Positions 1,722 to 33,305 of a stretch of 64,000 nucleotides of DNA are shown piece by piece. The DNA lies in the NCBI GenBank assembly GCA_964599285.1, contig CAZREI010000002.1:9955-73954 (forward strand), written 5' to 3'. The notes under the pieces were generated by a model, which did not search any database, had not been told where the DNA came from, and saw only the letters and a program-made list of their open reading frames with translations. This DNA comes from an uncultured Candidatus Saccharibacteria bacterium (GTDB taxonomy: Bacteria > Patescibacteriota > Minisyncoccia > Minisyncoccales > Staskawiczbacteraceae). A program made the translations under genes and the position numbers. Numbering within the stretch: position 1 is the stretch's first letter; the number at the start of each line of letters is the position of its first letter.

Positions 1722-1833
1722 GTTTTTGATTTATGATTTAAGATTTACGATTTATGAATTTGACTTTACGAATTCGTTATTATAGTATATTTATAGCCCT
1801 TTGGCAAGCCACTACACCTATTTCGAGGAATCC

Positions 1834-2040
1834 ATGAAGTGCGAAATCCAAAATCTTGATGATGGACTTATTGTGCTATACCCAGAAGATGACAAGGATC
1901 AGATTTTTCTGCAGAAATTAGCATCAACGGACCAGCTCGTAGGAATCTGGTGTCCAAATCATCCGGAAATTGAAAGAGCTGTAGCTCGCCTGGAATCTGT
2001 AAACCAAACTGCAGTTCTTCGATTTCCTTTCGCCGGCTAA
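1834..2040 (+). CDS. small hypothetical protein (68 aa), opposite strand inside spc operon
   Basis: ATG preceded by GAGGA SD. Upstream TTGACT-17-TAGTAT promoter (1752-1781); downstream hairpin plus T-run. Confidence 0.4.
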   Translation: MKCEIQNLDDGLIVLYPEDDKDQIFLQKLASTDQLVGIWCPNHPEIERAVARLESVNQTAVLRFPFAG

Positions 2041-2046
2041 TAGTCA

Positions 2047-2091
2047 GGCGCTCCATCCCTTTAGCAAGGTAGGATAGAGCGCTCTTTTTTT
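2047..2091 (+). terminator. intrinsic terminator after 1834-2040 ORF
   Basis: gcgctccatcc...ggatagagcgc stem followed by T7. Confidence 0.5.
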
Positions 2092-2092
2092 A

Positions 2093-2482
2093 CTACCATA
2101 TCTCGAGCATTACTTCCCCTCCCAGTTTTGCTTTCCTTGCCTGATTGTTGGTCATCAAACCTTTGGGCGTGGAAATGATGGAAATGCCAAATCCTCCTCT
2201 TACTTTTTTTATTTCTGCGTTTTTTACGTAAATCCTTTGACCTGGTTTTGACACCCTTTTTGCGCCTTCAATAGCCGGAATTCCATTATCATATTTTAAA
2301 ACAATCTTCATTACCTTATTTTTATCTTTGGCAACTTTTTTTACATCGGCCACAAATCCTTCTTGCGCCAAAATCATTCCAATCTGGTTTTTCAATTTTG
2401 AAAAAGGAATCAAAACCTCCGGCTTTCCCAAAGCCTTGGCGTTTCTAATTTGATTTAACATGTCGGTGATTGGATCAGTCAT
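2093..2482 (-). CDS. rpsH: 30S ribosomal protein S8
   Basis: MTDPITDMLNQIRNA...GGEVMLEIW typical uS8. Confidence 0.9.
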   Translation of the reverse strand: MTDPITDMLNQIRNAKALGKPEVLIPFSKLKNQIGMILAQEGFVADVKKVAKDKNKVMKIVLKYDNGIPAIEGAKRVSKPGQRIYVKNAEIKKVRGGFGISIISTPKGLMTNNQARKAKLGGEVMLEIW

Positions 2483-2486
2483 AGTT

Positions 2487-2580
2487 TAACATTTGACAAT
2501 TGACATGTGACATTTGACTTGCGAATTTGTAGCAACGTTGTCAATTGTCAATGGTCAAATGTCAATTGTTGCTGTTACCA
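2487..2580. repeat. family E repeat (tgacaattgacatttgac words)
   Basis: Copies at 6758-6840 and 20745-20830. Confidence 0.8.
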
Positions 2581-2760
2581 GCTTGATTTTGTTACTCCTG
2601 GAATTTCTCCTTTGTTGGCCAGTTCCCTAAAACATATCCGGCAAAGTCCGAACTTTCTCATAAAACCATGCCTTCGACCGCACTTAAAACAGCGTCTTTG
2701 CAGGCGGCTAGAAAACTTGGGTTTCATTTTTGCTTTTGCTTCTTGTGAAACTTTTGCCAT
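2575..2760 (-). CDS. rpsZ: 30S ribosomal protein S14 type Z (zinc-binding)
   Basis: 61 aa; [20 protein letters not shown] motif. Confidence 0.9.
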
Positions 2761-2761
2761 G

Positions 2762-2870
2762 TTTTAAGTATCAGCGATTTTTCAGCGTATTGTTCGGCGT
2801 GATTTCAGCGGACTAACACTATCGCTGAACTTAACGCTGATATCAACGCTGAATCTACGCGGAACATCGA
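2762..2870. repeat. family F repeat (aacgctgatatcaacgctgaat words)
   Basis: Copy at 9425-9480. Confidence 0.7.
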
Positions 2871-29962: not shown

Positions 29963-30115
29963 TAAAATTATTCTAATTATTCTAATTAACCTAATTGACC
30001 TAATCAAATCCCAATGACAAAATGTCGAATGCCTAAAACTGTACTTAGACATTCATGTATTTCGTCGTTATTTAGAATAATTAGAACAATTAGAATAATT
30101 AGAATAATTTAGAAA

Positions 30116-31507
30116 TTATGAAATAATTTCTTCAATGCCGCCCTTCATGTAAAAATTTTCCTCCGGCACGTCATCATGCTTGCCTTCCAAGATTTCGGAA
30201 AATCCTTTGATCGTGTCTTCCAATTTTACATATTTTCCGGGAATGTTGCTAAAAACTTCGGCAACATTAAATGGCTGGCTCATAAATTTTTGGATCTTGC
30301 GCGCGCGACTGACCACTTTTTTATCATCGTCCGACAATTCTTCCATTCCCAAAATGGCAATAATATCTTGCAAATCTTTATAACGCTGCAAGGTCAGCTG
30401 CACGCCACGGGCAACCTGATAATGTTTTTCGCCCACGATTTTTGGATCAAGCGCGCTTGATGTAGAAGCCAATGGATCAACGGCCGGATAAATTCCAATT
30501 TCAGTTAGGGCGCGGCTTAGCACAATGGTAGAATCCAAATGGGAAAACGTGGTAGCTGGAGCCGGATCGGTAATATCGTCAGCCGGAACATACACGGCCT
30601 GCACCGATGTAATAGACCCTTTTTGAGTTGAGGTAATGCGTTCTTGCAGTTCCGCCATTTCTTGCGCCAGCGTTGGCTGGTATCCCACCGCCGATGGCAT
30701 TCTGCCCAAAAGCGTAGAAACTTCCGACCCTGCCTGTGAAAACCTAAAAATATTATCAATGAAAAACAGCACGTTTTTATTTTCTTGATCGCGGAAATAT
30801 TCGGCCATCGTCAAAGCTGACAGTGCCACGCGAGCACGAGCGCCCGGCACTTCGTTCATCTGCCCGTAGACCAGCGCGGTTTTGTTGATAACGCCCGATT
30901 CAGCCATTTCTTTATACAAATCGTTTCCCTCGCGGGTTCTTTCGCCAACTCCCGCAAACACGGAAACTCCCCCGCCTTCTTCAGCCACGTTTCTGATAAG
31001 TTCCATTAGCAAAACCGTTTTACCAACGCCCGCGCCACCAAATAATCCAATTTTACCTCCTTTAATAAATGGCGCGATTAAATCAATAACTTTAATGCCA
31101 GTTTCAAACACTTCAGTTTTAGTGGCTTGTTCAATAAATGCTGGGGCTTGCCGATGAATGGGCCAAAACCTTTTAAAACCGGTAGACGCCCGACGTCTAC
31201 TTTCTTCGTCTCCCGTGAGCGGTTGTCCTAGTACATTAAAAATATTTCCCAGCACTTCTTGTCCAACCGGAACTTCAATTTGCTTACCCGTATCCAAAAC
31301 TTCCAGCCCGCGCATCAGGCCATCGGTAGTTTGCAAAGAGATAGCCCGCACCCGCCGTTGATCCAAATGCTTTACGGTTTCCAAAATGACATCACCCTTC
31401 GGACCGGAAATTTTTAAAGCATGATAAATTTCCGGCAGACTTGCGCCTTCCTCAAACTCCACATCCACCACCGGCCCAATAATTTGTACTATGTTTCCTT
31501 TTTGCAT
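30116..31507 (-). CDS. atpD: ATP synthase beta subunit
   Basis: [15 protein letters not shown]-like region. Confidence 0.95.
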
Positions 31508-31514
31508 ATTTTTG

Positions 31515-31841
31515 TTATTTATTTTTTCTTTCGTAAATTCTTTTATCAACTTTGGCATTTTTTTCTATAAACTCTTTTTCAATATCCAGCCCTAATTTAA
31601 TACCAACGGCAAATACTAAATTTATCACATCAGCAATTTCTTCGCCGGTATTGTTGGTAATTTCACGATTTTTATCCACGTTCATTCCGCTGATTTTCCT
31701 GCAAGCATTTACCAATTCTCCCAATTCTTCTGTCAGCAGCAACAATCTTTCATGTAAAGACTCATCTTCAAATCCCCTTTCTTTAATCTTTTCTGCAACA
31801 TATTCTTGCAAGTGCGATATTGTTCCTTTTTTAAGTTCCAT
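31515..31841 (-). CDS. MazG-like NTP pyrophosphohydrolase inserted in atp operon
   Basis: [11 protein letters not shown]; sits between atpG and atpD. Confidence 0.6.
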
Positions 31842-31946
31842 AATTTTAAAAATTAATTTCTGGATTGCCACATCGCTTCGCTCCTCGCAATGACGACGTT
31901 TGGTTTCCGCGTTTTTCCGCGTAAATTTCCGCGTGGTTCCGCGATA

Positions 31947-32981
31947 CTACGACAGTGACTCCGCTCCCGCGATGATTTCAATAATTTGGTTTGTAATGGC
32001 TGACTGGCGGCTCTTATTGTATTGCAAATTCAGGGCTTGGCCCAAATCGCCGGCGTTGTCTGACGCTGTTTTCATGGCCATTCTGCGAACGGCGTGTTCG
32101 GACGCGTTGGCTTCCAAAATAATATGATACATTTGCATAAAAAACAAATGCTTTGTTAGGCGTTCCAATACTTTTTCCGGTGAAGGCTCAATTAAATATT
32201 CCCTTGCCCTGTTAAATTGTCCCGTTTTTATCGGGACACCGCTTTGAGCGGATTTAACAGGGTGAACTCTATTTTCTCCTGGTGCAAAACTTAAACCTTG
32301 CTCTTTTATTAATTCAGCAAATTTTCCGGTTTGGGGTATCAATTCTTGCACTGTTTCTTTAATATGATCAAAGTCAATGGGTAAAATTCTTCTGACATGC
32401 GGTTCTTGCTTTAGGGCTGACCTAAAATGGGTGGAAATTACCACAACCCGATCCCACGATTTATCCAAATAACCTTGTACAATAAAATCGGTTAAGGGCT
32501 GGACTTGCTCAAGTGTGGTAAAATCCCCCACTTGGGTAAACTTTTTCAGTCCTGTGGTTTTGACTACAGGACTAAGTTTTTTTGATAAATACTGGAAAGC
32601 TTTTTCCCCTACCGCTACATAAGACTTTTCCTCGTTTTTATATTTTTCTTTGTCGCGTTCCATGTGCTGTTCAAACTTTTTAAACACCGAACTATTAAAC
32701 GCACCTGCCAACCCCTTGTCCGAAGCCACCAAAACAAACAATACTTTTTTGACGCGCCGCTGTTTTAGTAATTCCGGCAATTCCAATTTGGCCGATTTTT
32801 CCATCAGCGTCAAACTGGCGAGCAAATCCAAAGCCACAAAAGCGTAAGGGCGCGAAGCCAGCGCGATTTCCTGCGATCGGCGCATCTTGGTGGCAGCCAC
32901 CAGTTCCATGGCCTTGGTAATTTTATTAATATTACCAATGCTTTTGATTCTCTTTTTTAAGTTTTGTACCGAATCTGGCAT
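31947..32981 (-). CDS. atpG: ATP synthase gamma subunit
   Basis: KITKAMELVAATKMRR; C-terminal IIEIIAGAESL. Confidence 0.9.
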   Translation of the reverse strand: MPDSVQNLKKRIKSIGNINKITKAMELVAATKMRRSQEIALASRPYAFVALDLLASLTLMEKSAKLELPELLKQRRVKKVLFVLVASDKGLAGAFNSSVFKKFEQHMERDKEKYKNEEKSYVAVGEKAFQYLSKKLSPVVKTTGLKKFTQVGDFTTLEQVQPLTDFIVQGYLDKSWDRVVVISTHFRSALKQEPHVRRILPIDFDHIKETVQELIPQTGKFAELIKEQGLSFAPGENRVHPVKSAQSGVPIKTGQFNRAREYLIEPSPEKVLERLTKHLFFMQMYHIILEANASEHAVRRMAMKTASDNAGDLGQALNLQYNKSRQSAITNQIIEIIAGAESLS

Positions 32982-32982
32982 A

Positions 32983-33012
32983 CTTGACAATAATTTACTA
33001 TGGGTATATACT
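32983..33012 (+). promoter_or_regulatory. sigma70-like promoter TTGACA-17-TATACT
   Basis: Upstream of 33054 ORF. Confidence 0.4.
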
Positions 33013-33053
33013 TAAGCTGTGGTAGTTCGAAATACTGCTTGTTCAAGGAGAGT

Positions 33054-33254
33054 GTTATGCCGCAGGTTCTTCTCACGAGCACTCGATCAAATATCGCTGA
33101 GTATGTAACGAGAGGCGAGGGAGACGTCGGGGTGATGTTGTTCAACATCATCCTGAATACCGAACGGTCTGAGGACGGGTTACGATACGTCACCCACATC
33201 GTCCACGATGGAATCCTGGACGTTATCTTCCGAAAAGAAGAAAGACCTCAATAA
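33054..33254 (+). CDS. small hypothetical protein (66 aa) opposite strand between atpG and atpA
   Basis: AAGGAG SD; terminator ggcgccggaatgcaaacggcgcc+T8 at 33268-33298. Confidence 0.4.
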   Translation, partial: VMPQVLLTSTRSNIAEYVTRGEGDVGVMLFNIILNTERSEDGLRYVTHIVHDGILDVIFRKEERPQ

Positions 33255-33305
33255 CAATGTGCTTTAGGGCGCCGGAATGCAAACGGCGCCGTTTTTTTAC
33301 AAATT

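Follow-up and report, generated by a model that had tools for sequence, protein, structure and literature searches.

Why would a reduced bacterial genome keep small genes antisense within its ribosomal-protein and ATP-synthase operons, and lead them with a translation signal that the surrounding genes do without? The question is raised by a stretch of 64,000 nucleotides (GenBank assembly GCA_964599285.1, contig CAZREI010000002.1, positions 9,955 to 73,954), hereafter the window. A first-pass annotation, made from the sequence alone, had singled out seven small open reading frames (ORFs) on the plus strand, here named o1 to o7 in window order. It described each as self-contained, with a promoter, a Shine-Dalgarno (SD) motif and an intrinsic terminator of its own, and suggested acquired cassettes or a distinct expression class. 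We judge it likely that six of them, o1 to o5 and o7, are real and individually transcribed small-protein genes occupying conserved antisense slots in the core operons of a Staskawiczbacteria-like genome of the Candidate Phyla Radiation (CPR), mostly SD-led and turning over in content. The seventh, o6, is a conserved gene of host-like type.

Elongation factor G (EF-G) of the window is 88–96% identical to proteins named Candidatus Staskawiczbacteria by NCBI, and on such sequence matches the source is a CPR/Patescibacteria genome near that group. The organism is tiny and uncultured, and comes from groundwater. Over approximately the first 43 kb (1–43 kb) nearly all genes lie on the minus strand and include the spc and S10 ribosomal-protein genes, tuf, fusA, rpsG, rpsL and the atp operon. 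Scans of the window found no tRNA gene and no Rfam family, no integrase is present among its ORFs, and neither the window nor 169 loci of relatives searched for 16S rRNA contain an rRNA gene. Two sets of relatives were compared: the close relatives L082 to L089, found through EF-G matches and carrying an EF-G 90–96% identical to that of the window, and 80 loci from a metagenome scan with AtpG, whose AtpG identity is 60–74%. A scan of species-representative genomes with the L4 protein gave, among the matches listed, Paceibacteria relatives only, with identities of at most 57%, and none of these carries the small ORFs of the window. The SD threshold was a free energy (dG) of −6 kcal/mol or lower for starts of core genes and of genes in relatives, and of −5.5 kcal/mol or lower in the screen of the gap between atpA and atpG.

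All seven ORFs are indeed present on the plus strand, and their lengths are matched by only 6–80 of 5,000 composition-preserving shuffles of each interval (0.1–1.6%). Their coordinates stand except for the last, which starts at an ATG at 33057 and not at 33054. The units and the promoters facing them are laid out as follows.

1760–1788, plus strand: o1 promoter, TTGACT-17-TAGTAT, 9/12 match to consensus
1807–1779, minus strand: promoter facing rplF, TTGCCA-17-TATAAT, overlapping the o1 promoter
1825–1829 and 1834–2040, plus strand: o1 SD GAGGA (dG −5.9 kcal/mol) and 68-aa ORF, between rpsH and rplF in the spc operon
2047–2091, plus strand: o1 terminator, hairpin of −16.5 kcal/mol, then T7
9523–9551, plus strand: o2 promoter, TTGACA-17-TATACT, 11/12, conserved in five genomes
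9570–9542, minus strand: promoter facing rplD, TTGAAA-17-TATAAT, its -10 box overlapping that of o2
9597–9602 and 9609–9830, plus strand: o2 SD AAGGAG (dG −8.7 kcal/mol) and GTG-started 73-aa ORF, between rplC and rplD in the S10 operon
9840–9879, plus strand: o2 terminator, hairpin of −17.6 kcal/mol, then T7, with an end, GGCGCTCTTTTTTT, kept in relatives
13339–13397, both strands: back-to-back promoters around the palindrome TGTCAAATTTGAC, which is kept in L082, L083, L085 and L088
13366–13339, minus strand: perfect promoter TTGACA-16-TATAAT, predicted to drive tuf and the small genes x60 and x95
13369–13397, plus strand: o3 promoter, TTGACG-17-TAAATT with TG
13438–13442 and 13451–13810, plus strand: o3 SD GGGAG (dG −7.4 kcal/mol) and 119-aa ORF, str region
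13822–13850, plus strand: o3 terminator, hairpin of −14.2 kcal/mol, then T6
16020–16048, plus strand: o4 promoter, TTGACA-17-TATATT, 11/12, its -35 hexamer overlapping the fusA start codon (16020–16018, minus strand)
16077–16085 and 16089–16307, plus strand: o4 SD AGGAGGTGA (dG −11.5 kcal/mol) and 72-aa ORF, str region
16325–16355, plus strand: o4 terminator, hairpin of −14.1 kcal/mol, then T7
17042–17070, plus strand: o5 promoter, TTGACA-17-TATGAT, 11/12
17123–17380, plus strand: o5, 85-aa ORF without SD (dG −2.9 kcal/mol), str region
17402–17432, plus strand: o5 terminator, hairpin of −14.9 kcal/mol, then T6
28188–28215, plus strand: o6 promoter, perfect TTGACA-16-TATAAT, followed by a leader of about 125 nt (region 28188–28346)
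28347–28532, plus strand: o6, 61-aa ORF without SD (dG +0.3 kcal/mol), a CxxC-x17-CxxC treble clef, near the atp operon
28558–28576, plus strand: o6 terminator, bidirectional
32984–33012, plus strand: o7 promoter, TTGACA-17-TATACT, 11/12, its -35 hexamer 2 nt from the atpG start codon (32981, minus strand)
33045–33050 and 33057–33254, plus strand: o7 SD AAGGAG (dG −8.9 kcal/mol) and 65-aa ORF, between atpA and atpG
33268–33298, plus strand: o7 terminator, hairpin of −15.9 kcal/mol, then T7, acting in one direction only

The signals attributed to these ORFs hold to different degrees. A clean terminator follows all seven, with a hairpin of −9.3 to −17.6 kcal/mol and then T6–7, and an upstream A-run is absent at six of them. 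A sigma70-type promoter lies ahead of all seven as well, but is near consensus in five only (11–12 of 12 positions): o2, o4, o5 and o7 match TTGACA-17-TATAAT at 11/12, and o6 has a perfect 12/12 site, yet 132 nt upstream of the ORF, whereas o1 and o3 reach 9/12, the latter with an extended -10 TG. Sites of at least 11/12 number 13 in the whole window against 1.3 expected; eight fall in the studied gaps, five of them predicted to drive small ORFs and three being minus-strand partners that face the downstream host gene. An SD at normal spacing leads o1, o2, o3, o4 and o7 (−5.9 to −11.5 kcal/mol) but neither o5 nor o6. Similarly, the antisense position within gaps of the spc, S10, str and atp operons applies to o1–o5 and o7, whereas o6 sits near the atp operon and not inside it. 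The self-contained character of these genes follows in part from their orientation, because a gene placed on the opposite strand of a gene array cannot do without a promoter and a terminator of its own. As the o1 promoter overlaps the one facing rplF, the two form a bidirectional pair. The o2 SD is able to pair with an upstream CUCUUUUU tract; a leader hairpin of this kind, in which a pyrimidine tract pairs with the SD, was considered as a defining feature and set aside, being found in o2, o3 and several relatives and absent from most units of the atp slot.

That the surrounding host genes carry no SD turned out to be truer than first claimed. Across 72 host starts in the window the median dG is +0.2 kcal/mol, and about two reach −6 or lower, one of which is a mis-set start; random positions do so in 6.8% of cases. 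Among relatives, the threshold is reached by 12 of the 13 gap ORFs of L082–L088 against none of 63 anchored starts of ribosomal-protein and elongation-factor genes (Mann-Whitney p = 8e-9), and by one of 44 atpA starts. Homology-anchored starts were used for this contrast in place of a count that took the best of all starts (all ORFs, loci of 56 relatives), which was dropped as uninformative because a long gene presents numerous potential starts and small ORFs are often spurious. The other SD-led genes of the window form only two clusters, at 59.1–62.6 kb and 43.4–45.6 kb. With the SD nearly confined to small opposite-strand genes in the window and in relatives, the notion of a distinct expression class is supported at the level of sequence. 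The ribosome of this lineage would still be able to pair with an SD, and the small genes would constitute a separate translation class; a functional SD requires an anti-SD in the 16S rRNA.

The starts of the core genes have features of their own. A -10 box (TATAAT or TAAAAT) lies about 6 nt before the ATG of fusA (16018–16032) and of a 115-aa gene (16958–16970), and another lies 2 nt before the annotated ATG of a 60-aa gene (13330–13344), which has more in-frame ATGs 6 and 9 nt downstream. Translation of these three genes may proceed from mRNAs with no leader or almost none. Right before the starts of rpsS (7172), rplB (8143), rplC (10689), rpsL (18425), sodA (25103) and tgt (27385) stands the motif TTCGTGAYYACTCC, followed by A/T-rich bases; it contains CTCC, the complement of the SD core, and is also found before starts in L082, L083 and L086.

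Are the gaps themselves conserved? In L082–L089 the rpsG|fusA, fusA|tuf and rplC|rplD gaps are either compact (L084, partly L085) or expanded. Synteny thus gives a divided answer, the gaps being empty or compact in some relatives and holding different small ORFs with the same signals in others. Expanded gaps contain antisense ORFs of 36–127 codons, mostly unlike those of the window in sequence and comprising DUF4177-like proteins, zinc ribbons, membrane peptides and orphans. All 13 such ORFs of L082–L088 are followed by a terminator, most have a TTGACA-type promoter, and their SD motifs include AGGAGG, GAGGAGG and GGGGGAGG. In every case examined the reading frame opens a short distance past the SD and closes no more than about 20 nt before the terminator hairpin, and the antisense promoter often adjoins the start codon of the downstream host gene. 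An alignment of the rplC|rplD gap in five genomes separates frame from content: the promoter (GATTGACAAAT...TATAnT), an upstream palindrome and the GGCGCTCTTTTTTT terminator end are kept, and the ORFs between promoter and terminator do not align. The slot holds the following.

Window: DUF4177-like protein (o2)
L087: DUF4177-like protein
L083: two-helix membrane protein
L082: hydrophobic peptide of 36 aa
L088 (15439–15728): last nine codons, FCPTCGDKL, and stop of a zinc-ribbon gene, joined to the promoter, with the terminator kept

Judged by these remnants, the content of L088 is a decayed cassette. In the fusA|tuf gap the palindrome TGTCAAATTTGACA, formed by two back-to-back -35 boxes, is kept in four relatives, and downstream of it stand unrelated ORFs of 58, 98, 119 and 127 codons. 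Zinc ribbons resembling o3 occur in four different slots, with paralogues of o3 elsewhere in L083, L088 and L160, and L087 has DUF4177-like genes in all three slots. No description of such slots was found in the searchable literature. The TIGR-Tas systems of Staskawiczbacteria (bioRxiv 10.64898/2026.09.09.750476) were considered and are unrelated to these loci.

The same gaps also hold inserts on the sense strand. Between fusA and tuf (12862–13336, minus strand) lie x60, encoding a 60-aa zinc-ribbon protein, and x95, encoding a 95-aa coiled-coil protein. Between rpsG and fusA, in the str region (16354–16958, minus strand), a HigB/RelE-like toxin gene (86 aa) overlaps its upstream 115-aa partner by 4 nt, and the pair is found at the same place in L083, L086 and L089. 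These inserts, x60, x95 and the toxin with its partner, are kept in L083 and have no SD.

The atpA|atpG gap allowed the pattern to be followed across the metagenome loci. It falls into two size classes, at most 90 nt in about 27 loci and 186–1591 nt in about 37. Among ORFs of 30 codons or more in 34 expanded gaps, SD and terminator occur together at 23 of 109 on the antisense strand and at 1 of 108 on the sense strand, and many of the antisense ORFs carry 12/12 promoters. Of the expanded gaps, 15 of 31 have an antisense promoter of at least 11/12 no more than 120 nt away from the start of atpG, compared with none of 27 compact gaps. The -35 hexamer of this promoter is usually separated from the start codon by 1–14 nt, an arrangement shared by the window, and more than 20 relatives have antisense promoters like that of o7 adjoining atpG. 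The search for a sense-direction promoter in this gap gave none in 71 loci, and the window has none on the minus strand between atpA and atpG (32981–33306), so that the atp operon must read through the o7 cassette on the opposite strand. From this arrangement atpG seems to rely on transcription that continues from atpA through the cassette, and the o7 terminator, which has no upstream A-run, is consistent with such passage. A MazG/dUTPase-like gene between atpG and atpD (31515–31841, minus strand) is a further sense-strand insert without SD.

What these slots encode is diverse. About one third of the slot proteins have a hydrophobic helix (small peptides of 36–67 aa) and about one third have CxxC motifs; a transmembrane segment is found in about 13 of 42 overall. 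All seven window proteins are hydrophilic, with a maximum of 0.81 on a 19-residue Kyte-Doolittle window and no transmembrane segment. The assignment of o4 to DUF4177 (PF13783) was borne out (29.3 bits against a cut-off of 25, E = 1e-6). A clade-specific DUF4177-like profile built from relatives matches o2 weakly (E = 4e-4 among 20 sequences), and o2 is not counted as a member. The double zinc ribbon PF12773 matches o3, which has three CxxC pairs, at 22.5 bits, below the cut-off of 27.3; two of its relatives, L083_8458 and L083_9597, score E = 3e-7 for that family. The o3 protein is zinc-ribbon-like, though short of the threshold itself. Neither Pfam nor NCBIfam gave a family for o1, with which the large protein databases were not searched. 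When 1.84 billion representative proteins were scanned exhaustively with HMMER, o5 found only itself, and o7 found only itself among 5.8 billion proteins and has no relatives in the atp loci of the other genomes. Single-sequence AlphaFold models of o5 and o7 reach a confidence (pLDDT) of about 61, which is insufficient for searching by fold. Selection is visible in those orthologues that lend themselves to comparison: dN/dS is 0.24 for the slot ORFs of L161 and L162, the one informative pair, and 41–55% amino-acid identity remains after dS saturation in L097, L113 and L159. By these measures, slot ORFs with comparable orthologues are under purifying selection.

The exception within the set is o6. 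It belongs to the CxxC-x17-CxxC / zf_Tbcl_2 families (TIGR04272, 51.2 bits against a cut-off of 36; PF23477, 49.7 against 27), so the statement that only one of the seven has a recognisable family does not hold, and the zinc ribbons counted as three are two, o6 and, weakly, o3. At least ten relatives have o6 at the same antisense position with 67–81% identity, and its homologues are without SD in all of them; o6 is therefore not a variable cassette, and its signals are host-like, which is the outcome that the first-pass annotation had named as refuting its reading. Its leader (about 28222–28285) has three blocks, UAGACAAUAAGUCGU, ACGACCUUAGAGUC and AAAGGUCGUUUUAUU, which are kept upstream of the o6 homologues in L090, L092, L094, L096, L102, L109 and L118, with variable hairpins between them. 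The middle block can pair with the first or the last, and pairing with the last yields a terminator-like hairpin with a U-run. The leader matches no Rfam family and is a candidate attenuator or riboswitch.

Leaving o6 aside, we favour the following explanation. Each unit would consist of a strong sigma70 promoter, a leader of 40–60 nt, an ORF of 60–120 codons and a one-way intrinsic terminator, which would block antisense transcription from the upstream host gene while letting the polymerase of the operon pass. In several gaps a host-direction promoter overlaps the -10 or -35 region of the unit's promoter, or the latter abuts the downstream host start codon. Most units carry a canonical SD, unlike core genes, which start without one, from leaders rich in A/U or, it seems, from transcripts that have no leader. 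The slots would be old, with promoter and terminator conserved across the clade, and their content would change by rapid divergence, by exchange with a clade-wide pool of DUF4177-like proteins, zinc ribbons, membrane peptides and orphans, and by decay. Since the units face operon transcription head-on, their expression is probably coupled inversely to operon activity, through polymerase collision or antisense RNA.

Could the promoter, and not the protein, be what is selected? The antisense promoter would then act on the operon by insulating or throttling it, or would be no more than the mirrored arm of a symmetric bidirectional promoter, and the ORFs would be passengers or proto-genes whose SD and translation only protect the transcript up to the terminator. 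Its position beside the starts of atpG and fusA persists although the ORFs that follow it share no relationship, o5 and o7 stand alone among billions of proteins, and only 4 of 37 slot proteins from relatives gave a Pfam match. Bidirectional symmetric promoters have overlapping -10 elements on opposite strands and divergent starts about 7–25 bp apart (PMC12825309, PMC10268837). The gaps of o1 (1783–1788 plus, 1784–1779 minus) and o2 (9546–9551 plus, 9547–9542 minus) have such overlapping -10 hexamers, with predicted start sites about 23 bp apart, and in the o3 gap the -35 boxes form the palindrome. Unlike in those promoters, one arm consistently drives an SD-led small ORF with its own terminator, and the fusA and atpG cases have no clear partner promoter. 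Recognisable domains recur as well (DUF4177, double zinc ribbon), amino-acid conservation outlasts synonymous saturation, and the reading frames fill the space between SD and terminator hairpin. We therefore regard selection on the promoter alone as unlikely, although it is the rival that fares best.

Alternatively, the units may be recent horizontal acquisitions from phages, plasmids or SD-using donors, keeping a donor-type SD that the host does not use. A phage moron is a gene that has entered an operon-like array between two of its members, together with a promoter and a terminator, and the units resemble morons in being self-contained, with their own promoter and terminator, between conserved neighbours, and in being present or absent among relatives, some of which have the same slots empty. 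The other SD-led genes of the window lie in two clusters, that of 59.1–62.6 kb being foreign-looking (54–57% GC). The composition of the ORFs themselves is divided. With a median GC of 42.8% for host coding sequences, o4 (52%) and o7 (49.5%) are outliers at the 97–98th percentile, o5 and o6 have 46–47%, and o1–o3 are ordinary at 42–44%, with low GC3; the higher GC reported for the ORFs relative to their flanks is thus clear for o4 and o7 but not for o1–o3. In contrast to morons, the units lie outside a prophage, among rps, rpl, fus, tuf and atp genes and in opposite orientation, and the promoter/terminator frame is kept while the gene changes. Viral-contig scans with o1, o3 and o4 found no relatives, and PHROGs and PADLOC gave no convincing family for any of the seven, the only hits of o3 being short zinc-ribbon matches. 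Promoters and terminators are conserved across a clade in which AtpG is only 60–74% identical, and the arrangement must therefore be old, with the SD maintained throughout. Recent acquisition is accordingly quite unlikely, and the gap genes look like a lineage-internal, fast-evolving pool rather than foreign DNA. Of the proposed acquired cassettes, the turnover of slot content among relatives stands, but no evidence of a foreign or viral origin was found, and three of the seven have ordinary GC.

Other mobile arrangements offer partial parallels. Integration hotspots and islets hold different accessory genes at the same position between core genes in related genomes, and so do the slots. An integron cassette is a promoterless ORF with an attC site, with integrase and attI nearby. 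Unlike both, the slots receive single small genes (36–127 codons) with their own promoter, within essential operons, and without attC or integrase; the hairpin at the 3' end is a GC stem with a T-run, that is, a terminator.

A third rival holds that these are modules akin to type I toxin-antitoxin systems or excludons, in which the small protein is a toxin or growth-arrest factor, the read-through operon transcript is its antisense antidote, and the unit is switched on when transcription of ribosomal-protein or ATP-synthase genes drops. In type I systems a small hydrophobic toxin peptide is encoded by an mRNA that an overlapping antisense RNA represses. The mRNA of each small ORF would likewise be fully complementary to a convergent transcript. 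Opposite o7 read-through is obligatory, such antisense transcription being deduced from the missing minus-strand promoter. Small hydrophobic peptides make up about one third of the slot ORFs of relatives, a leader hairpin can hide the SD of o2, that of o3 and, in o5, the corresponding purine tract, and the type II HigB-like pair lies in the same gap region. Unlike type I toxins, the proteins of the window are all hydrophilic, the antisense partner would be the mRNA of an essential operon and not a dedicated small RNA, and several gaps have a host-direction promoter, so that read-through is not always required. We consider this reading very unlikely.

That the ORFs are chance frames or non-coding small-RNA genes, as the four of seven without a clear Pfam or NCBIfam family (o2 having its weak profile match) and the poor models of o5 and o7 might suggest, is effectively refuted for the set as a whole by ORF lengths that beat shuffles, SDs at the correct spacing, family matches and recurrence in dozens of independent assemblies at an antisense-to-sense ratio of 23 to 1.

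Several points nevertheless weigh against the explanation that we favour. The promoters, SDs and terminators were recognised by match to consensus only, and the class lacks uniformity, o5 and o6 being without SD. The start codons of relatives were picked partly by SD score, with the identically treated sense-strand ORFs as control, and the dN/dS estimate comes from a single pair. A function at the protein level is unproven for o1, o5 and o7, because o5 and o7 have no homologue and o1 no family match. Lastly, about half of Parcubacteria reportedly have no anti-SD motif (PMC9297842); if this lineage is among them, the SD motifs cannot act as such.

The nearest mechanistic precedent is the SD-blind ribosome of Bacteroidia with its single SD-led gene, rpsU. 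In that group translation is SD-independent, the 16S rRNA keeps an anti-SD that is sequestered by bS21, bS18 and bS6, and the SD-led rpsU of Flavobacterium johnsoniae is translated by ribosomes without bS21 (PMC7797042, PMC9976891, PMC13000453). As in Bacteroidia, nearly all core genes here have no SD and an A-rich upstream region, and a small discrete set has a strong one. The two differ in that the SD-led set consists here of small, fast-evolving accessory genes on the opposite strand, together with island genes, and not of rpsU, and in that the organism belongs to the CPR.

Further elements of the window lie beside these units. Nearly all spacers between co-oriented host genes measure 60–100 nt and consist of a short tandem array (period 7–9) followed by its inverted copy, so that a long hairpin rich in AT separates the cistrons; spacers of relatives are built in this style from different repeated words. 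Examples of such array pairs lie at the following positions.

2485–2518 with 2538–2569
6219–6251 with 6297–6329
10708–10745 with 10761–10800
12696–12726 with 12732–12762
22573–22607 with 22657–22688
27400–27436 with 27453–27492

An element resembling repetitive extragenic palindromes (REP), CTGGATTGCCACGTCGCTTCGCTCCTCGCAATGACG, occurs at 9899–9936, 13860–13906, about 18480–18513, 31859–31896 and 49357–49394, and also at 21020 (minus strand) and 25239, with copies directly past the o2 and o3 terminators; its core, CGCAATGACG, has ten matches with at most one mismatch (seven exact) against 3.5 expected. As for the two other SD-led clusters, the island at 59108–62630 has a strong SD on every gene, encodes an AAA ATPase (59750–61477, minus strand) and a DUF1360 membrane protein, is bounded by back-to-back perfect promoters (62549–62521, minus; 62603–62630, plus) and looks like a recent acquisition. 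The cluster at 43483–45574 (plus strand) comprises three SD-led genes, encoding a protein with a GreA/GreB C-terminal domain, a thymidylate-kinase-like protein and a radical SAM protein, in an otherwise minus-strand and SD-less region, with GC near the host median.

Taken as a whole, the finding is an unusual clade-wide pattern, akin both to accessory-gene hotspots and to SD-poor lineages with SD-led exceptions. If it is true in vivo, one reduced genome would harbour two modes of initiation, one for nearly all genes, without SD, and one for discrete small genes led by it. This would parallel the specialised ribosomes of Bacteroidia and make the idea testable in a second, very distant lineage. 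It also sharpens the anti-SD question, since the clade either keeps an anti-SD for these genes or the motifs do something else. For annotation, strong compact promoters, SDs and terminators would be flagged as parts in CPR genomes. A bolder proposal, which we put forward tentatively and think unlikely as it stands, is that conserved antisense slots in the essential operons of Staskawiczbacteria-like CPR, each bounded by a near-perfect promoter and a one-way terminator, express rapidly diversifying small proteins through a private SD-dependent channel, with an output inverse to the activity of growth-related operons, and would serve as a variable-effector system coupled to growth state or as a cradle of new genes. 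A conserved frame with changing ORFs inside essential operons would in any event provide a test case for the origin, diversification and exchange of small proteins.

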